Positions 31,910-61,911 of a stretch of DNA of 64,000 nucleotides are shown piece after piece; position 1 is the first letter of the stretch, and each line of letters begins with the position of its first letter. Source of the stretch: a virus; the IMG/VR virus record IMGVR_UViG_3300046169_000120, positions 32,001-96,000 of that record. One strand, 5' to 3'. Made by a program: the position numbers and the translations under genes. The notes beneath the pieces are model-generated. The model did not search any database. It saw only the letters and a list, made by a program, of their open reading frames with translations, and had not been told where the DNA came from.

Positions 31910-32575
31910 TTACGGTCTGAGTGCTCCCTGGATAGTCGCAGTGAATTTCATTTGATTCGCAGCTAAAAATGAGCCTACAGAAGTAGGGTTGTCGCTGCTA
32001 CTTGATATCATAATTTTTACTTTATTGGACACGCTAGTGTCTAAACTTATAGAATATGTTGTGCGAAGATCTATATCTGGACTAGTTATTCCTGATGGCG
32101 AAGTTGGACTCTTATAAATATAAGTAAAATTAGCAATATTAAATTCTTGGGAGACTCCACCTATCTGAAAATCATTGATTTGATCTGATCCTCCGCTTTT
32201 TGTATATTTATATGAAAATTGAGATCCTACTGTTGGAGCAGCAATAGTCCATTGATTTGGTTGAGTAGCATGCATTGATCCGTGAGAAACAATTTCTGCA
32301 GTTACATCCAAAGAAAAAGAAGATCCTGATGAAATCAGATTATTCTCATTAAATTCTATCAATCCAACGTGCGAAAGTGATGAACTGGTACTAGCGAAAA
32401 CGGTCGCGTTTTTGGAATCAACGTATGGTTGTGTTTCTTGAAGCGCTGTGAATAAATCACCTGCGATCATACGAAATGTTCCTCCTCCAGGTGTTTGTAT
32501 AATAACAAAGTCACTACTGGGCTGAAAGCTTGATTGTGAGAGTAACGGTAAATCTTCTATTCTTTTGTCGGCCAT
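31910..32575 (-). CDS. Hypothetical virion/fibre protein
   Basis: MADKRIEDLP N-terminus like 462 and 33166; beta-rich body. Confidence 0.55.
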   Translation of the reverse strand: MADKRIEDLPLLSQSSFQPSSDFVIIQTPGGGTFRMIAGDLFTALQETQPYVDSKNATVFASTSSSLSHVGLIEFNENNLISSGSSFSLDVTAEIVSHGSMHATQPNQWTIAAPTVGSQFSYKYTKSGGSDQINDFQIGGVSQEFNIANFTYIYKSPTSPSGITSPDIDLRTTYSISLDTSVSNKVKIMISSSSDNPTSVGSFLAANQMKFTATIQGALRP

Positions 32576-50838: not shown

Positions 50839-51228
50839 TCATAATACTGCTAATACTTGTTTGGGTTCTAGTCTGACGGCAATAGCATAGTCTACCATCT
50901 GTTGAGTGTCGGTGTCAACAAAATTCTTGTGCTTGTAGGGATTGTATGTGACAGGTCGAGCCGTTGGATGTGAGTCGATCCACTCGCCCGTTTGCCAATT
51001 CTCAAGATAACCATGCACACCCGCATGAACATTTTTGCGTTGTTCTGCTAGAACACGCTTGCGTCCCGATTGACTCACCTTGAAAGTGCAACTATGCATC
51101 GCAAGATTCTTTGCGTGAAGTTTAACCAATCCATTTTGACGAACACTCCAACAATCTCTGTGAAGATTCTTGTAGACAAATACAGGTCGATTGTAGTTTA
51201 TCTTGTATCGAGGTTCGTCCTTAATCAT
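50839..51228 (-). CDS. Conserved phage hypothetical protein
   Basis: VY.NLH..CWSVR..G.V, F.VSQSGR.RV..EQRKNVHA, V.YNPYK; promoter at 51235-51262. Confidence 0.8.
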   Translation of the reverse strand: MIKDEPRYKINYNRPVFVYKNLHRDCWSVRQNGLVKLHAKNLAMHSCTFKVSQSGRKRVLAEQRKNVHAGVHGYLENWQTGEWIDSHPTARPVTYNPYKHKNFVDTDTQQMVDYAIAVRLEPKQVLAVL

Positions 51229-51482
51229 AAGTTTAGTATGACAGAATTTTAAGTGATGTCAACCCTCTTTTTTAAGGTCGTCAACAAATTTAGCCAAACG
51301 CTTGAGTTCGGCAATGGCGTTTTGTTTGCAGGCGAAACCTGCTTTTTGGCTTTGCAAAATTTCTACACAAATCGAAACTGTTGCTTGCCATGAGGGAGTT
51401 GCATTAATTGTTTTCATAAATACAAGTATGACAGGCTGAGCGTGCAAGTCAATACTTTTTTTCGTGTTTTTAAAGATTGTTG

Positions 51483-51559
51483 TATCTTGTTGTGGTTCAA
51501 CAACTTAGGTAAAACTACCTACGCGATTTTCGCGCAACTCGTTGATATTCAACACTTTA
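51483..51559. repeat. 77-bp element, copy 9
   Basis: TATCTTGTTG-N5-CAACAACTTA, core with CCTACG, CAACTCGTTG-N5-CAACACTTTA. Confidence 0.9.
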
Positions 51560-51729
51560 TAACATTTTAATTTTTATGTTGATTTTTTAATTTTTATTGT
51601 TTTTTATAGTATCTTTTATTTTATACTATTATTTATTAGTTTATTATTTCTTATTTATGTCATTGTTATTTCCCCCCTCTGTATTTGATAAGAATGATAT
51701 TTGATATTTGTGTATTTGGTGTTTGGGGT

Positions 51730-51807
51730 TTACCAATTGCGAATATCGTCAATCATGCGGATTACTCCTACTATGCTACTAACTATTAGGATTGTAGTTA
51801 CGTCCAT
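51730..51807 (-). CDS. 25-aa membrane peptide, paralog of 45252-45338
   Basis: MDVTTILIVSSIVGVIRMIDDIRNW. Confidence 0.75.
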   Translation of the reverse strand: MDVTTILIVSSIVGVIRMIDDIRNW

Positions 51808-52410
51808 TTATTGTGTTTTGCTGTATTGTTTCCAAATTTCAAGATCAAGATCAGTGACGCTCTTGCCAAGTTGGCGAGCTATGTTTTTAAAGATGTTCGC
51901 AAAATAGTAATAGGTGTTCTCGTTGCTTGGCGTGCTTTTTGGTGCATCTGCATACCCTTGGTCACGAAGAAAACGCAGTATGTGTGTGTCAAGCATCGGC
52001 TCATCAAAGTCCTCACGACTATGAGAAAGAAAGAATCGTGCGGTCTTAAGTCCAATCCCTGGAACCTCCAACAAACGATTCAAGGATACACTCTGGAGAT
52101 CTTTAATTTTAGACACAGCAACATAAGAATTGTATCTCTGAGCATACGGACTCAGCTTTGCCCAATGCATGATTTCATTTAGACGCCCGAGTTTAATTAA
52201 AGCACGAATGGAATCAAAAGGAGATGAATCCTTCATGAGTTCTGATTTGCGATGCTTTGATGCAACATCTTTTGCTCGTTCAAGAAACACCTCTAATTTG
52301 GGTGCTTCGATTGAACTTTTTTTGCCAGCGACATTGATGCAAAATAGTATGAACTCTTGTAGTTCAGATTGTGTTCTGTTGTAATTTGTTACTTCGGCGG
52401 GATTAATCAT
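51808..52410 (-). CDS. HhH DNA glycosylase (Ogg-like)
   Basis: LLEVPGIGLKTARFFL hairpin with Lys, LDTHILRFL with Asp, LDLEIW. Confidence 0.8.
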   Translation of the reverse strand: MINPAEVTNYNRTQSELQEFILFCINVAGKKSSIEAPKLEVFLERAKDVASKHRKSELMKDSSPFDSIRALIKLGRLNEIMHWAKLSPYAQRYNSYVAVSKIKDLQSVSLNRLLEVPGIGLKTARFFLSHSREDFDEPMLDTHILRFLRDQGYADAPKSTPSNENTYYYFANIFKNIARQLGKSVTDLDLEIWKQYSKTQ

Positions 52411-52428
52411 ATCTTTTTTTGTGTTAGG

Positions 52429-52683
52429 TTATTGTGCAATGTGAAGTGCTGTACGAAGATTGTTGCAATCGCCTGAAGATAAAAATACTTCTCGGCAATA
52501 GTCTAAATTTTCTCGTTCGACTCGCTCGATAGTTTTAACTGCTTGATAAGCATGAACTCGTTCTCGAGGTAGTCCGCCCCACTTGATAACCACTTTCATG
52601 TGTGGAAAATGCTCGGCAATCTCTGCGAGTTGTGCTTTGTTGATGTATCCCCAATTGGCAAGTATGTCTTTTAATGTCTGCAT
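52429..52683 (-). CDS. Hypothetical protein
   Basis: 84 aa; ATG 7 nt after TTGACA-N16-CATACT (52691-52718). Confidence 0.7.
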   Translation of the reverse strand: MQTLKDILANWGYINKAQLAEIAEHFPHMKVVIKWGGLPRERVHAYQAVKTIERVERENLDYCREVFLSSGDCNNLRTALHIAQ

Positions 52684-52719
52684 GATTACTAGTATGACAG
52701 ATTGTTTGTACTTGTCAAC

Positions 52720-52770
52720 AAAAAAGTCCCATTCGAGCCGAAGGGGTGGAGGGAGGCTCGAACAGGACTT
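52720..52770 (-). terminator. Long hairpin terminator closing the ncRNA unit
   Basis: AGTCC..TTCGAGCC-loop-GGCTCGAA..GGACT plus U-run. Confidence 0.7.
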
Positions 52771-52791
52771 AAGGGATGATTAAGAAATAGG

Positions 52792-52968
52792 TGTGGGGAG
52801 GGACTACTAAATACCCTCGACTTTCGGTGTGAACTTTAGTTCTATGTATACCTAATCGCACTACGCTTGGATTGGAAAATCCTACCTCAGACATTCGCCC
52901 ATCGGCACTTCACCACAAAGAAACGCATACCTTATCTCGAACACAAAGAGATTGCTCGGTCACCCACA
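52792..52968 (-). ncRNA. Candidate structured non-coding RNA (~180 nt)
   Basis: GC-richer island with no long ORF, ends pair (UGUGGG/CCCACA), T-arm-like 3' hairpin; own promoter, boxA-like site and terminator. Confidence 0.65.
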
Positions 52969-53059
52969 GGAAGGATTATAAGCCCTTCCAAAATTTTTAA
53001 AATGTAAAAGATCAATTATTTTATTTGATTGAGTTTGTTTCTCAATTATTTATACAAGT

Positions 53060-53088
53060 ATTATACTATATTATTTGTTATTTGTCAA
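53060..53088 (-). promoter_or_regulatory. Consensus sigma70 promoter driving the ncRNA; boxA-like TGATCTTTTACA at 53003-53014
   Basis: TTGACA-N17-TATAAT exact. Confidence 0.8.
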
Positions 53089-53188
53089 GGATTATTTTTT
53101 GTAAATTATAATCTTTTGCAAATTGTTCATCTCTTTTCATACTACTTACAATAATAATATTTTCTGATACATAGATTGGCATAATGCT

Positions 53189-53455
53189 TTAATTTATCAT
53201 TTGAGACTTAACATACATACCAAGTGCCACAAGTACTATAGTTAATACGAATGGTATAAGTCCGAAGGTAATAGCTTTAGTATTCTTAGACATGAATCCA
53301 AGAGATGCTCCGACCAATCCTCCAATTCCCGCTAATACAATAGGTAATCCACCAACAATTTTCATGCTCACAAGAATGAATGTGACAAAAAAAGAAATGA
53401 GTGATATTAGGCTAATTTGCCCTGCTAATTTTGAGTTTTTTGATTGTTCTGTCAT
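53189..53455 (-). CDS. Small 3-TM membrane protein
   Basis: Three hydrophobic segments. Confidence 0.6.
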   Translation of the reverse strand: MTEQSKNSKLAGQISLISLISFFVTFILVSMKIVGGLPIVLAGIGGLVGASLGFMSKNTKAITFGLIPFVLTIVLVALGMYVKSQMIN

Positions 53456-53459
53456 AAGG

Positions 53460-53748
53460 TTATAGTTTACTATAAATTGTATTGTTTGTCAAGTATTGTT
53501 TTTTAAAAATTGTAACTTTTTCGCAAGCTGTACAAGTTGATCGTCCGCATTTCGGTACTGCATAATCATTTATCGATACATTTTGTTTGCTATTTGATCC
53601 GCAACTAGATAAAAAAATTAATGCAATTAAGTATAATTTATTCACTTTCACAATTTACGCATCCTCTATGTTCATAAGGACACACATCGTTGTTACAATT
53701 ATCATCCGCACAACTAGATAAAAAAAATAATAATATTAAATATTTCAT
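53460..53748 (-). CDS. Two tandem small Cys-rich lipoproteins (53638-53748 and 53460-53651)
   Basis: Both have an FLSSC lipobox and a late CxxC. Confidence 0.55.
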
Positions 53749-53896
53749 TAGTTTGGTAATAATAATGTTTTTAATTGTTGTATTGTTCTATTGGTTAATA
53801 AAGATAATTGTTCTAGTGTGATGTTCCAATTTGTATCGTAGAGATGTTCAATCTCTGCATCAGTCCATTGTTCGGGCAATTTGAATATATCTAACT

Positions 53897-54106
53897 TCAT
53901 GCAAATTTTCGTTTGGCTAGACGCATCGCACGCTCGGCTTTAATTTCTGCGAGGCGTTGTTGTGCTTCTGCTTGTTGTGCGAAGATACTATCTGTTACGA
54001 CACTACCAAAGTTGGCAAACTTGCCTCGTTTGTTGACGCTTGTATACTTGCCGTTTTGAATGTCAGTCATTACCTGTGATGCTCGTGCGTTTTTTGCAAT
54101 ACTCAT
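53897..54106 (-). CDS. Hypothetical basic protein
   Basis: 69 aa, AAGG SD, own TGn-CATACT promoter. Confidence 0.7.
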   Translation of the reverse strand: MSIAKNARASQVMTDIQNGKYTSVNKRGKFANFGSVVTDSIFAQQAEAQQRLAEIKAERAMRLAKRKFA

Positions 54107-54733
54107 TTTGTTTTTCCTTTTGTTAGCAATTATTGGTTGATGTTGTCTAGTATGACAGACTATTCGTTTTTGTCAAGTCTTTTTTTGTTGAACTTGCTTT
54201 TTCCGCCAAATGCCCCTGTTTTAGTGGCAACTCCACCCTTTGCTCCGACTTTGCCTCGTCCGCTCTTCTTTTTTCCTACAATATACTTTCTTGGATTTAT
54301 TTGATTCATAATTTTCTATATTTTTTTGTTTAATTAATCGGGGGCAATATATTTGAGGCTTTATTTGTGTTTATTTGCTTTACTTTTATTTGTTCTTCAC
54401 TAAACCATTTAACACAATAACCTAATAAAAAACTTGGTACAATTATGCACATTAAAATTATTATCGTTTCAATCATTATCTATGTATTTTTCGTATATAT
54501 ACAATCCTATTATTATAAAAATAATAAAACTAAAAATTTCATTCATTTGTTTCTTAATATTTGAGCTATTAGTATTAGAGTTTCATTTATTTTGTTTAAC
54601 TCTATTCGTACATCATCTGTGTATCCATTTGATATAGATATTTGTTCTTTTATTTTGTCGAGTTCTTTTGCAATTTGTTTCATGGTATATAATATATTGT
54701 ATATTTGCAAATGTGTCAAGCAAAAAAAGAATT

Positions 54734-54807
54734 TGGCAGACCGACAGGGATTTGAACCCCGACTAGAGGTACCAAAAACCTCTGTGCTACCATTACACCA
54801 TCAGTCT
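54734..54807 (-). tRNA. tRNA-Gln(UUG)
   Basis: AGACTGA/TCGGTCT acceptor, GAGGT-TTTTGGT-ACCTC arm, GGTTCAAATCC, CCA. Confidence 0.92.
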
Positions 54808-54816
54808 GTAAAGAAT

Positions 54817-54894
54817 TGGCGGGATAGACGAGACTCGAACTCGCGACCTTCTGCGTGACAGGCAGACGCTCTAACCAAACTGAGCTACTACCCC
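54817..54894 (-). tRNA. tRNA-Asp(GUC)
   Basis: GGGGTAG/CTATCCC acceptor, TCTGC-CTGTCAC-GCAGA arm, GTTCGAGTC, CCA. Confidence 0.95.
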
Positions 54895-55619
54895 CAATCC
54901 ACCCACAATTACACTAAAAATTTTATTTAATTATTTATAAATTCGGGACTCTCTGTCCACATACCCTTGGCTCGCTTGCCGTTATTTGTTTTGAGGTTGA
55001 TTGTTGCGTACAAGTGTTCAAGCATTGCCCTGTCATCTTCTTTTTCTTTATTTGATGTTTTATTTTTTGCAATTATTTTATTTATATCATCTAATATATG
55101 GTCTATTTCTCTTCTTGTGTGCATTGTATTATATTGTATATTGTTATTTTGTTATTTCGCTTAAATAATTGTATAAATTTCTACATTCTATTATTGATTT
55201 GTTTGTATTATTTTGTTTTAATTGAAATTCCATGCTTTGTTGCATCATCATTACATCTTGTATCTGCTCGTCAGAGTATAAATGTATATCTTTTGCTAGT
55301 GTTTCGACTATAAATAACTTTTTTCAAGCATCTCTTCGGCATGAGGATCATTATCCTCCATTATTGCGTAATCTCCTCAAGATATTCTAGCGTGTGCTTA
55401 GCTTCCCACAAGGCTTTCTCTTCATCGCCCAACTGCACATAAAAATTCATGCTATTATTATGTATATTCAGTTGTTCTGCTTGGTCTTTTGTTAATTTGC
55501 TTATCTTGTTTTGAAAGATTTCAACTATTTCAATACTTATTCTTTGTAGTTCAGTCATAATATACTATATACAATACAATACGAATATGAGATTGTCAAC
55601 AATAAAATGAAATATTATA

Positions 55620-55644
55620 CAATATATTGATAATCAATGACTTA
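55620..55644. promoter_or_regulatory. Solo 25-bp dyad IHF-consensus palindrome
   Basis: CAATATATTG-ATAAT-CAATGACTTA, 20 bp upstream of a leftward TTGACA. Confidence 0.6.
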
Positions 55645-56227
55645 TGATAGTATTATTTGAGATCGCTTGGAAATCCGTGACTATTTCGTACCACTTCTTT
55701 AGACTCGCCCGAATCACACTCTTTTTTTGATTCATTTAGCACAATCGCACGAAATATTTGATGCAGTTGCGAGGTCGCTCGGCACACCTGTATATAACTT
55801 ATTTTTGTTATTTGTATTATTGTATAGAGAAATTTATATACTTTAGTCATTTTTATTATTTATTTATTAGTTTTTTGTATCAAATTATACTATATTTAAT
55901 AGTAATTTATTTTGAGTTTTTTTATTTTGCACCAATTTTAATTATAAAAACTGATTTAATTGTATCAATTATTTTATATATTTAGGTCGGGCAACCCACT
56001 TTACCCCATTTTCTACCACATTACAACACATTATTATTGTTTATTTATTGTATTATTGTTTATTATTGATTATTGTATATATTGTATATTCCTATATAGA
56101 ATGCGTACATATAAAGTATATTGTTATGAGTCAATAGAATAATGTGAGAAGGGGATGTATTGGCTAAAGCGAGAAGACAACAACAAAATATAGTAAAACA
56201 TATGTAACTGATATGTAGCACATATGG

Positions 56228-61149: not shown

Positions 61150-61911
61150 TTATCTTTCTAAGCAGTAACTCCAATAACGAGAATTTCTTCTGTTTTGAAC
61201 CTTGTTCCAATACATTTCTCTTGCCACATTAGGAGCAACTCCATGCTTGTCGCATCGTACAAGCCATTCGTCTTCCATGCGTTGATAAGCTTTGAGAGTG
61301 TTTGCGTGACCTTTCTTTACATCGTGACCCATGAAACGCAAAAGGTGAACATCAAGACAACAAAGTTGTGCTTCGGTAGGATAACTCAACGCAAGTGCGT
61401 AAGTTGTCTTTGCATTACCTAACCCATAAATTGTTCCAATTAGACGATTGCGACATTCTTGCCATGTCTCGTCATCTTGCTTTTTGAACTGATCGGGATT
61501 CTCACGAAACTTGGTTGCCAAGTCCCACAATCCACGCTCTCTACGCTCATACAAGCCCACTCTAGCCTTGACGATCATTTGCTTGAGCTTGTCTTTGGAT
61601 ATAGTCCAAGAAAGATCACTCATGGCAACCTCGTAGCCTCGCACATTACTTTCCCAAGTGGTATGCACACTCATAATGGCGAATACCCAACGAGCAAACA
61701 TTTCGGAATCATCTTGAGGAATCAAGTTTGTCCAATACTCTTGCTCTGCATGAACTGCACCGAGTTTAAGGTTGTTAAAGAAACGATCCACATTCTTGAG
61801 AGGATCAACTTCGGGTTTAGTCTCTACTTGCTCGATACGCTCGTTGATTGGAGCGATAGAGTTGGTAAGAAGTAAGATAGAATTATTCAATGTGTTTTCT
61901 GCAATGTTCAT
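61150..61911 (-). CDS. Second HhH DNA glycosylase (Ogg-like)
   Basis: FAIMSVHTTWESN, IYGLGNAKT hairpin with Lys, CLDVHLLRF; promoter at 61919-61946. Confidence 0.72.
   Translation of the reverse strand: MNIAENTLNNSILLLTNSIAPINERIEQVETKPEVDPLKNVDRFFNNLKLGAVHAEQEYWTNLIPQDDSEMFARWVFAIMSVHTTWESNVRGYEVAMSDLSWTISKDKLKQMIVKARVGLYERRERGLWDLATKFRENPDQFKKQDDETWQECRNRLIGTIYGLGNAKTTYALALSYPTEAQLCCLDVHLLRFMGHDVKKGHANTLKAYQRMEDEWLVRCDKHGVAPNVAREMYWNKVQNRRNSRYWSYCLER

Follow-up and report, generated by a model that had tools for sequence, protein, structure and literature searches.

The manA locus

The DNA analyzed here (the window) is a stretch of 64,000 nucleotides, positions 32,001 to 96,000 of the IMG/VR virus record IMGVR_UViG_3300046169_000120, and lies within a viral record of 125,691 b that is 93% complete. 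On its minus strand, between positions 53088 and 52720, a promoter, an AU-rich leader, a structured RNA and an intrinsic terminator follow one another, and immediately downstream stands the promoter of the next gene, an open reading frame (ORF) of 84 aa (Table 1). The GC-richer RNA block is almost certainly a member of the manA family, as the Rfam model RF01745 scores 67.9 bits at 52788-52989(-) against a gathering cut-off of 55.2 bits (E-value 3.8e-15). It is the only manA copy in the 125,691-b record. An earlier note on this DNA had likened the 3' hairpin alone, and tentatively, to manA, a resemblance that proves right for the whole block. As the note had foreseen for a strong match, this one confirms the RNA and at the same time removes the claim to a new class, because the Rfam manA model matches the whole block above cut-off.

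Nothing besides manA was found by Rfam at E<=1 over 52600-53200, and ARAGORN, which located three tRNAs in the window, reported neither a tRNA nor a tmRNA at the manA site, the nearest tRNA genes being 1.7 kb away. The tRNA-like 3' end that had been attributed to the block was thus not borne out, and tRNA-like, tmRNA and Y-RNA-like identities are not supported by the same ARAGORN search and Rfam models, of which only manA matched.

Within its family the window's manA is divergent, and the phage lineage that carries it is not related to the T4-like cyanophages. Its clade (the window's copy and its relatives described below) scores 61.4-89.4 bits with the manA model, compared to 120-197 bits in 37 typical copies. 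BLASTN of 52400-53500 against isolated phages gave no match, and the phage is without a close isolate: its DnaE-type polymerase shares 27-33% identity and its terminase ~24% identity with those of the nearest isolates, which sets it apart from the T4-like cyanophages. From the type of its promoters, we would guess that the host is a marine gammaproteobacterium.

Table 1. Features of the manA unit and of the adjacent gene in the window.
Feature	Position	Strand	Remark
sigma70-type promoter TTGACA-N17-TATAAT	53060..53088	-	12/12 match
AU-rich leader, 70 nt	52990..53059	-	between promoter and manA
leader 5' hairpin TTGAG-AAACAAA-CTCAA	53045-53029	-	pairing kept in relatives
boxA-like word TGATCTTTTACA	53014-53003	-	10/12 against the E. 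coli rrn boxA word
manA RNA (Rfam RF01745)	52788..52989	-	all 192 model positions (1-192), 202-nt fold
L5 loop GUGGUG	52911..52916	-	UGG core complementary to CCA of L7 (52875-52873)
L8 loop segment ACUAAA	52835..52840	-	complementary to the L9 segment
L9 loop segment UUUAGU	52806..52811	-	within the last hairpin, 52818-52798
AU-rich spacer UUUCUUAAUCAU...	52769..52787	-	joins manA to the terminator
intrinsic terminator (14-bp stem hairpin 52768-52726, T6 52725-52720)	52720..52768	-	dG -22.7 kcal/mol
second promoter TTGACA-N16-(TG)CATACT	52691..52718	-	the next gene's own; outside the RNA unit, which it delimits
84-aa ORF (next gene)	52429..52683	-	no known family

Conservation of the unit in related viruses

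Relatives were retrieved through the neighboring 200-aa protein, which gave 29 viral loci. A manA RNA is present at the same site in 26 of them (15/18 plus 11/11), in all cases above cut-off, and among the three loci without a full copy, two are contigs that end there (one of these, L014, keeps the 3' 76 nt) and the third encodes a protein with merely 38% identity. The 27 copies represent 19 distinct cores, 69-90% identical to that of the window.

For a comparison of extended units, 23 distinct promoter-to-terminator units were used, and every one showed the same succession of promoter, leader of ~70 nt, manA, terminator, second promoter and ATG. The self-contained non-coding unit around a structured RNA that had been proposed for the window is therefore a conserved arrangement, with manA kept in 26/29 loci and both promoter and terminator in 23/23 units. 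The unit promoter matches at 12/12 in 14 units and at 11/12 in 9, and is separated from manA (counted from the -10 element) by 66-73 nt in 15 units and by 120-184 nt in the 8 units that carry inserted modules. The terminators have dG values from -17.3 to -25.9 kcal/mol and runs of T6-T8, and are located at +45 to +70 after manA in 20 units; in the other 3, which have a further module, they lie at +114 to +117. Their stems are diverse in sequence between relatives, the hairpin being always kept and present in the minimum free energy (MFE) fold of all 23 units. The second promoter matches TTGACA/CATACT without mismatch in 19 units, and in 23/23 the distance from the end of its -10 element to the next ATG is 6-7 nt. 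Mean pairwise identity rises from 0.42 upstream of the -35 element to 0.84 in the promoter and 0.81 in the leader, and amounts to 0.74 in manA, 0.60 in spacer plus terminator and 0.81 in the next ORF.

Extra non-coding modules stand within the unit upstream of manA in 8/23 cases and downstream in 3/23, and no Rfam family was detected in them at E<=0.1. The site behaves like a small RNA cassette. Three kinds of module were distinguished: ~L005:1700-1775 (also represented by loci L002, L007, L012 and L027), ~L029:2355-2415 (L023, L025) and ~L024:2297-2390 (L023, L026).

The same comparison bears on the idea that the unit encodes a small protein, for instance through the 41-aa ORF at 52894-52769, to which we assign a negligible probability. 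Sense-strand ORFs of 20-41 aa are indeed present in the window; none is conserved among the units. The 41-aa ORF is absent from the 90% identical relative L004, the sense strand is free of ORFs of >=20 aa in loci L019, L021 and L022, some indels between relatives have lengths that are not multiples of three, and the substitution pattern is that of a paired RNA.

Fold and covariation of the manA RNA

The pairings picked out in the earlier note correspond for the most part to helices of manA. The GGAAGG/CCTTCC hairpin (52989-52969) is real, and belongs to manA itself, as stem 1 in the Rfam model, rather than being a separate leader element. The ends of the block pair as the manA closing helix (GUGGG 52967-52963 with CCCAC 52797-52793), which is invariant in 19/19 relatives and differs from the family consensus GGGaG/CuCCC by two pairs changed on both sides. 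The complementary segments AUCUC/GAGAU, GGAUU/AAUCC and GAAC/GUUC are internal helices of manA, and the terminal hairpin GAGGG-UAUUUAGUAGU-CCCUC (52818-52798) is the last manA hairpin, paired in 100% of the relatives and with both sides changed in 3 pairs. On the other hand, the arm said to be complementary to CCUAAUCGCACUA has no supported helix, its region being conserved but unpaired in the clade.

The fold was assessed on the cores of the 19 distinct relatives with a MAFFT alignment built independently of the Rfam model. RNAalifold predicted 49 pairs on this alignment, 21 of them with changes on both sides. When the Rfam structure was projected on the alignment, 77.1% of the cells were paired, compared to 39.5-52.5% with slid partners, and its covariation score was 0.283, compared to 0.082-0.115 in the controls; none of 500 shuffles matched the observed pairing or covariation. 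Six of the 11 helices are paired at 94-100%, and six contain pairs changed on both sides. Both homologs and a covariation above slid and shuffled controls, for which the earlier note had suggested a search, are thus at hand. As the folding of the single window sequence gave a z of only -0.62, a stability that is not unusual, support for the fold comes from the Rfam score and the covariation and not from folding energy; the single-sequence MFE folds miss the closing helix in 8/23 units.

A variant region is the long 3' arm that carries loop L8, for which the model has a 7-bp and a 4-bp helix. Only 43.6% and 24.0% of their cells pair in the clade, and the consensus helix is not formed; in its place there is an invariant short hairpin, UGAAC-UGAU-GUUCA, with conserved unpaired flanks, and columns 143:183 within this arm form a perfectly co-varying pair in 19/19 relatives. 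The variant arm does not exclude manA membership. Features that the window's RNA has in common with the manA of T4-like cyanophages (RF01745), as described by Weinberg et al. 2010 (PMC2864571), are the hairpin at the 5' end, the helix that closes the fold, a multi-branch core, a last loop of 11 nt, the words GUGAC, UAAGGU, GUGGUG and CCA, and the co-varying L8:L9 loops. It differs in that its L6 loop is not GNRA-like and its long L8 arm lacks the consensus helix.

Promoter, leader and boxA-like word

The exact TTGACA-N17-TATAAT that had been reported is present and is the top-scoring site of 51000-56000, and its spacing predicts a transcript start near 53053. Perfect sites of this kind occur 7 times in the 125,691-b genome, compared to 0 for a reversed-pattern control. 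Since the other 2 perfect promoters in the window stand upstream of ordinary protein genes with short 5' untranslated regions (UTRs), a perfect promoter alone is no mark of an RNA gene. All 7 sites are on the minus strand (G000:C1 39331, 81176, 85060, 102762, 104148, 109394 and 125422).

In the 13 insert-free units the leader has a mean pairwise identity of 0.81, higher than that of the manA core (0.74) and of the sequence that precedes the -35 element (0.42). The arms of its 5' hairpin read TTGAG/CTCAA in 18 units; 4 others show a compensatory change to TTAAG/CTTAA, and 1 of the 23 units was not parsed. By this conservation the leader clearly has a function in the window's clade.

The boxA-like word of the leader is present as had been noted, whereas its 10/12 match to the E. 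coli rrn boxA is not above chance in the window, where matches with <=2 mismatches number 6 compared to 11.13 +/- 3.30 expected. A 12-nt boxA consensus for the E. coli rrn operons is general background, and was used here as such and not derived by a tool. The resemblance to rrn-type boxA leaders consists of a promoter-proximal boxA-like word ahead of an untranslated structured RNA. It raises the possibility of an arrangement like that of rRNA operons, with the word acting as a boxA that recruits NusB/NusE, allows escape from Rho and leads to RNase trimming. This proposal concerns the leader only, is compatible with the explanation of the RNA that we favor below, and seems to us rather unlikely. 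It draws on the retention of the word in 23/23 units at a near-fixed distance from the -10 element (41-48 nt from its end in 22 of them, even with modules inserted after the word), on the form GATCTTTAACA in 15/23 units, 9 of which read TGATCTTTAACA and match the E. coli word at 11/12, and on the identity of the leader compared to that of the region upstream of the promoter. Against it stand the chance-level match in an AT-rich window and the lack of the word before the unrelated manA copies: upstream of 37 such copies it was found in 0/37 at <=2 mismatches, compared to 4.4-7.7% of control windows. The particular form TGATCTTTTACA is unique in the genome. The leader word is a candidate boxA.

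Terminator and next gene

The long hairpin with a U-run described for the end of the unit is an intrinsic terminator. A consensus terminator scan of 51000-56000 did not list it, probably on account of its loop (~15 nt), which is beyond the 8-nt limit of the tool. The spacer that precedes it contains CTTAATCA in 19/27 copies, equal to 10/15 distinct downstream stretches, and may be a processing site.

Downstream of the terminator, the -10 element of the second promoter ends 7 nt before the ATG at 52683. The 84-aa ORF that starts there gave no Pfam or PHROG match, and its first 150 nt have 0.81 identity among relatives. No Shine-Dalgarno-like stretch lies in the gap between second promoter and ATG in 23/23 units, and the mRNA of this gene would be leaderless or near-leaderless, since the -10 element ends 6-7 nt before the ATG. 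A similar TTGACA-N16/17-tgtCATACT located 6-7 nt before an ATG, again with no Shine-Dalgarno-like stretch, was seen at 51262-51226, implying leaderless mRNAs there as well, and further promoters of the tgtCATACT type are at 54176 and 51452.

manA in other viruses

A wider survey made use of a pattern of Rfam-conserved words, which was found in at least 119 viral stretches; 80 of them were listed, 59 loci were eligible and the 40 shortest were used. A typical manA was present in 37 of these 40 loci. Because the word pattern required GTGGTG in L5, variation of L5 in this set is uninformative.

Ten of the ORFs downstream of typical copies were tested and encode gp32 (5), transaldolase (2), phosphomannomutase, a cupin/JmjC protein and a 2OG-Fe(II) oxygenase. 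The ORF-adjacent copies represent the known setting of the T4-like cyanophages, in which manA precedes gp32, transaldolase or phosphomannomutase, whereas the window's copy has its own promoter-to-terminator unit. In 6/37 loci a same-strand tRNA gene comes after manA (1-nt overlap, or gaps of 2, 5, 7, 49 and 49 nt), and one further copy is located 138 nt after an array of three tRNAs. This adjacency suggests co-transcription of manA with the tRNAs and its release via tRNA processing. The tRNA-adjoining copies, including the array case, are L068:2344-2609, L109:2795-3072, L076:695-972, L090:2878-3155, L064:3525-3834, L125:5685-5991 and L094:2401-2959.

In 6/37 loci (L091, L126, L048, L109, L071 and L089) manA is preceded on the same strand, at a distance of 224-413 nt, by a glutamine riboswitch aptamer (RF01739, 35-39 bits).

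Loop contacts

A July 2026 preprint (10.64898/2026.07.01.735769) reports cryo-EM structures in which manA RNAs form pentamer-based octamers, decamers and a 60-subunit cage, held together via intermolecular kissing loops L5-L7' and L8-L9'; it describes another variant that uses L6-P6' (a GNRA loop and its receptor), L5-L7' and L3-L8', and states that the peripheral helices determine the type of oligomer. We inferred the position of these loops in the Rfam consensus by helix count (L5 GUGGUG, L6 gaaa, L7 ACCA, L8 aCUguA, L9 UAuacAguAAU), and the GNRA-type L6 of the consensus fits this mapping.

L8:L9 pairing was surveyed in 55 sequences, of which 54 were parsed (35 typical copies and 19 of the window's clade); L073 was unparsed, and in L084 the assignment of L9 is doubtful. 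At the three central positions L8 and L9 pair in 54/54 parsed sequences, and 0/5000 partner shuffles reach the observed pairing. At one of these central pairs C-G occurs in 44 sequences and A-U in 10, without mismatch; at another, G-C occurs in 51, A-U in 2 (the window and L004) and G-U in 1. The window and L004 thus have the compensated ACUAAA:UUUAGU, with six pairs in the window, while most of the clade has ACUG:CAGU. L8 and L9 are complementary over 3-6 bp in 19/19 clade members, and L5 and L7 are likewise complementary in 19/19 (87/95 cells paired). The window's RNA accordingly belongs to the same Rfam family as the cage-forming manA of the preprint and has both loop pairs of the pentamer interfaces complementary in its clade, whereas its peripheral helices differ. 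What is added here is a family-wide covariation for a contact that the structures place between subunits, and not a new class of RNA.

Transcript data

Among public sequencing runs, 14 DNA runs (marine, seawater or viral metagenomes) contain three quarters or more of the words sampled, compared to fractions of 0.05-0.16 in 6 RNA runs. RNA evidence consists of Logan contigs from 4 RNA runs, with depths of 2-22 and no transcript ends, whose uncovered parts carry no meaning. One of them, from run X17, is a 354-nt metatranscriptome contig of depth 22 that contains a relative's manA over 52790-52984; its central part has 141 letters compared to 134, and its downstream part differs.

Probable function of the manA unit

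The best overall explanation of the locus, which we consider probable, is a gene for a manA-family RNA, made as a discrete non-coding transcript and probably self-assembling. Host RNA polymerase would initiate at the consensus sigma70 promoter, near 53053, transcribe the conserved leader of 70 nt and then the manA fold of 202 nt, and stop at the strong intrinsic terminator near 52720, which would yield a primary RNA of ~330 nt. The next gene would be expressed independently, from a promoter of its own so placed that its mRNA would begin at the AUG. Finally, as its most likely mode of action, the RNA would associate with itself through L8-L9 and L5-L7 loop contacts into closed multimers, as reported for other manA RNAs in vitro. 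That the unit is a free-standing RNA gene rather than a cis-acting switch is in our judgment quite likely, and we read the RNA as a free molecule and not as a 5'-UTR switch because it has its own terminator and the next gene has a separate promoter. That manA forms multimers in vivo is a serious possibility, which we hold tentatively and which falls a little short of probable on this analysis.

Several observations weigh against this explanation. With respect to the discrete unit, 28/37 unrelated copies have an ORF start 7-78 nt downstream, a classic 5'-UTR setting, and a terminator-like site <=200 nt downstream was found in only 10/37 (7 of them at +14 to +47), compared to 4/37 in an antisense control. 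In addition, three short RNA-library contigs, X15 (52673-52820), X16 (52604-52754) and X18 (52650-52804), with depths of 2-3.6, cross the terminator and the second promoter into the next ORF; they may represent read-through if they derive from RNA, or DNA carry-over. The RNA-library contigs are too thin to tell whether the RNA is abundant or processed, as the earlier note had supposed, and neither show nor exclude a discrete RNA. With respect to assembly, the oligomers of the preprint were obtained in vitro at ~3 mg/mL RNA and 10 mM MgCl2 with a 50 C step, and its loop numbers are placed on the Rfam consensus by our mapping. The L5:L7 covariation in the clade is not above that of shuffled partners (2180/5000 reach the observed value). 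The arm that carries L8 is without the Rfam helix in the clade, so that its geometry may differ from that of the solved RNAs. Moreover, complementarity between loops would fit an intramolecular pseudoknot or an intermolecular contact alike, and sequence comparison cannot tell the two apart; Weinberg et al. 2010 (PMC2864571) had already drawn "pseudoknot?" in manA.

A first alternative is a transcription-terminating riboswitch, in which manA would bind a metabolite and the hairpin and U-run at 52768-52720 would be an expression platform that gates read-through from the strong promoter into the 84-aa gene and beyond. In Rfam, manA is listed as cis-regulatory, and Weinberg et al. 2010 (PMC2864571) regarded it as a probable candidate for a riboswitch. 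The order of aptamer and terminator, on the strand of the genes that follow, is moreover a textbook layout, and the ORF-adjacent copies and the three thin contigs bridging the terminator can be added to this. Even so, we consider a riboswitch at this locus quite improbable. Pairing of the 5' arm of the terminator with the 3' part of manA is no better than that of shuffled arms (mean z -0.51, with 2/23 units below -2). The terminators vary freely in sequence, whereas the 3' part of manA is constant. A read-through mRNA would hold an internal, unaided AUG, since in 23/23 units the next gene has its own promoter, at 6-7 nt from the ATG, with no Shine-Dalgarno-like stretch in between. As for the 5'-UTR position and the competing expression platform by which a cis-regulatory element is recognized, the unit has instead its own terminator and a second promoter in 23/23 cases, and shows no antiterminator signal. 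Beyond the clade, typical copies precede genes of widely different kinds, a full-text literature search found no paper naming a manA ligand, and 6/37 unrelated copies adjoin tRNA genes. manA is thus found in three settings, and a switch dedicated to the 5' UTR would hardly be expected ahead of a tRNA or a terminator. The preprint (10.64898/2026.07.01.735769) still terms manA a putative cis-regulatory element; for the window's clade, the genomic evidence argues otherwise.

A second alternative accepts the free-standing RNA and denies its assembly: the RNA would act as a monomer that binds or decoys either another RNA or a protein of the host or phage, the L8:L9 contact being an internal pseudoknot. 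The stand-alone architecture fits this equally, long invariant unpaired stretches surround L8 in the clade, and, as L8 and L9 are on neighboring hairpins of one junction, an internal kiss is sterically conceivable, in line with the question mark of the 2010 drawing. Nevertheless, in the structures of the preprint L8-L9' and L5-L7' are placed between subunits of the solved RNAs, and none of the results suggests a binding partner. We regard the monomer as unlikely.

Returning to the self-assembling RNA gene, the nearest functional analogues are ROOL and GOLLD (Nature 2025, PMC12286853), phage structured RNAs without an assigned function, described as often located near tRNA islands and as forming closed multimers of RNA only in vitro. 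A location next to tRNA genes is also seen for some manA copies, whereas ROOL and GOLLD have no sequence or structural relation to manA and are far larger. A bolder version, which we consider rather doubtful, is that in this phage lineage manA would be a dedicated early RNA gene whose product forms an RNA-only shell or ring in the infected cell through the co-varying L8:L9 and the L5:L7 contacts, with the strongly conserved leader as a Nus-type antitermination or processing signal for high output of an untranslated RNA. If this were true, manA would be a naturally occurring RNA cage of phages that is amenable to genetics, and its 16-year label of riboswitch candidate would be overturned. manA has been an orphan riboswitch candidate since 2010, and the 2026 preprint presents cages in vitro yet keeps the cis-regulatory label; the window's lineage offers a clean natural case for manA as an RNA gene in its own right. 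These results direct experiments away from ligand screens and to assembly, for which the locus provides a compact, delimited unit of ~330 nt.

Neighboring genes

Two paralogous genes (phrog_11575) are encoded on the minus strand of the window at 51808-52410 and 61150-61911, with weak helix-hairpin-helix and Ogg-type glycosylase matches that fall just under the Pfam cut-off.

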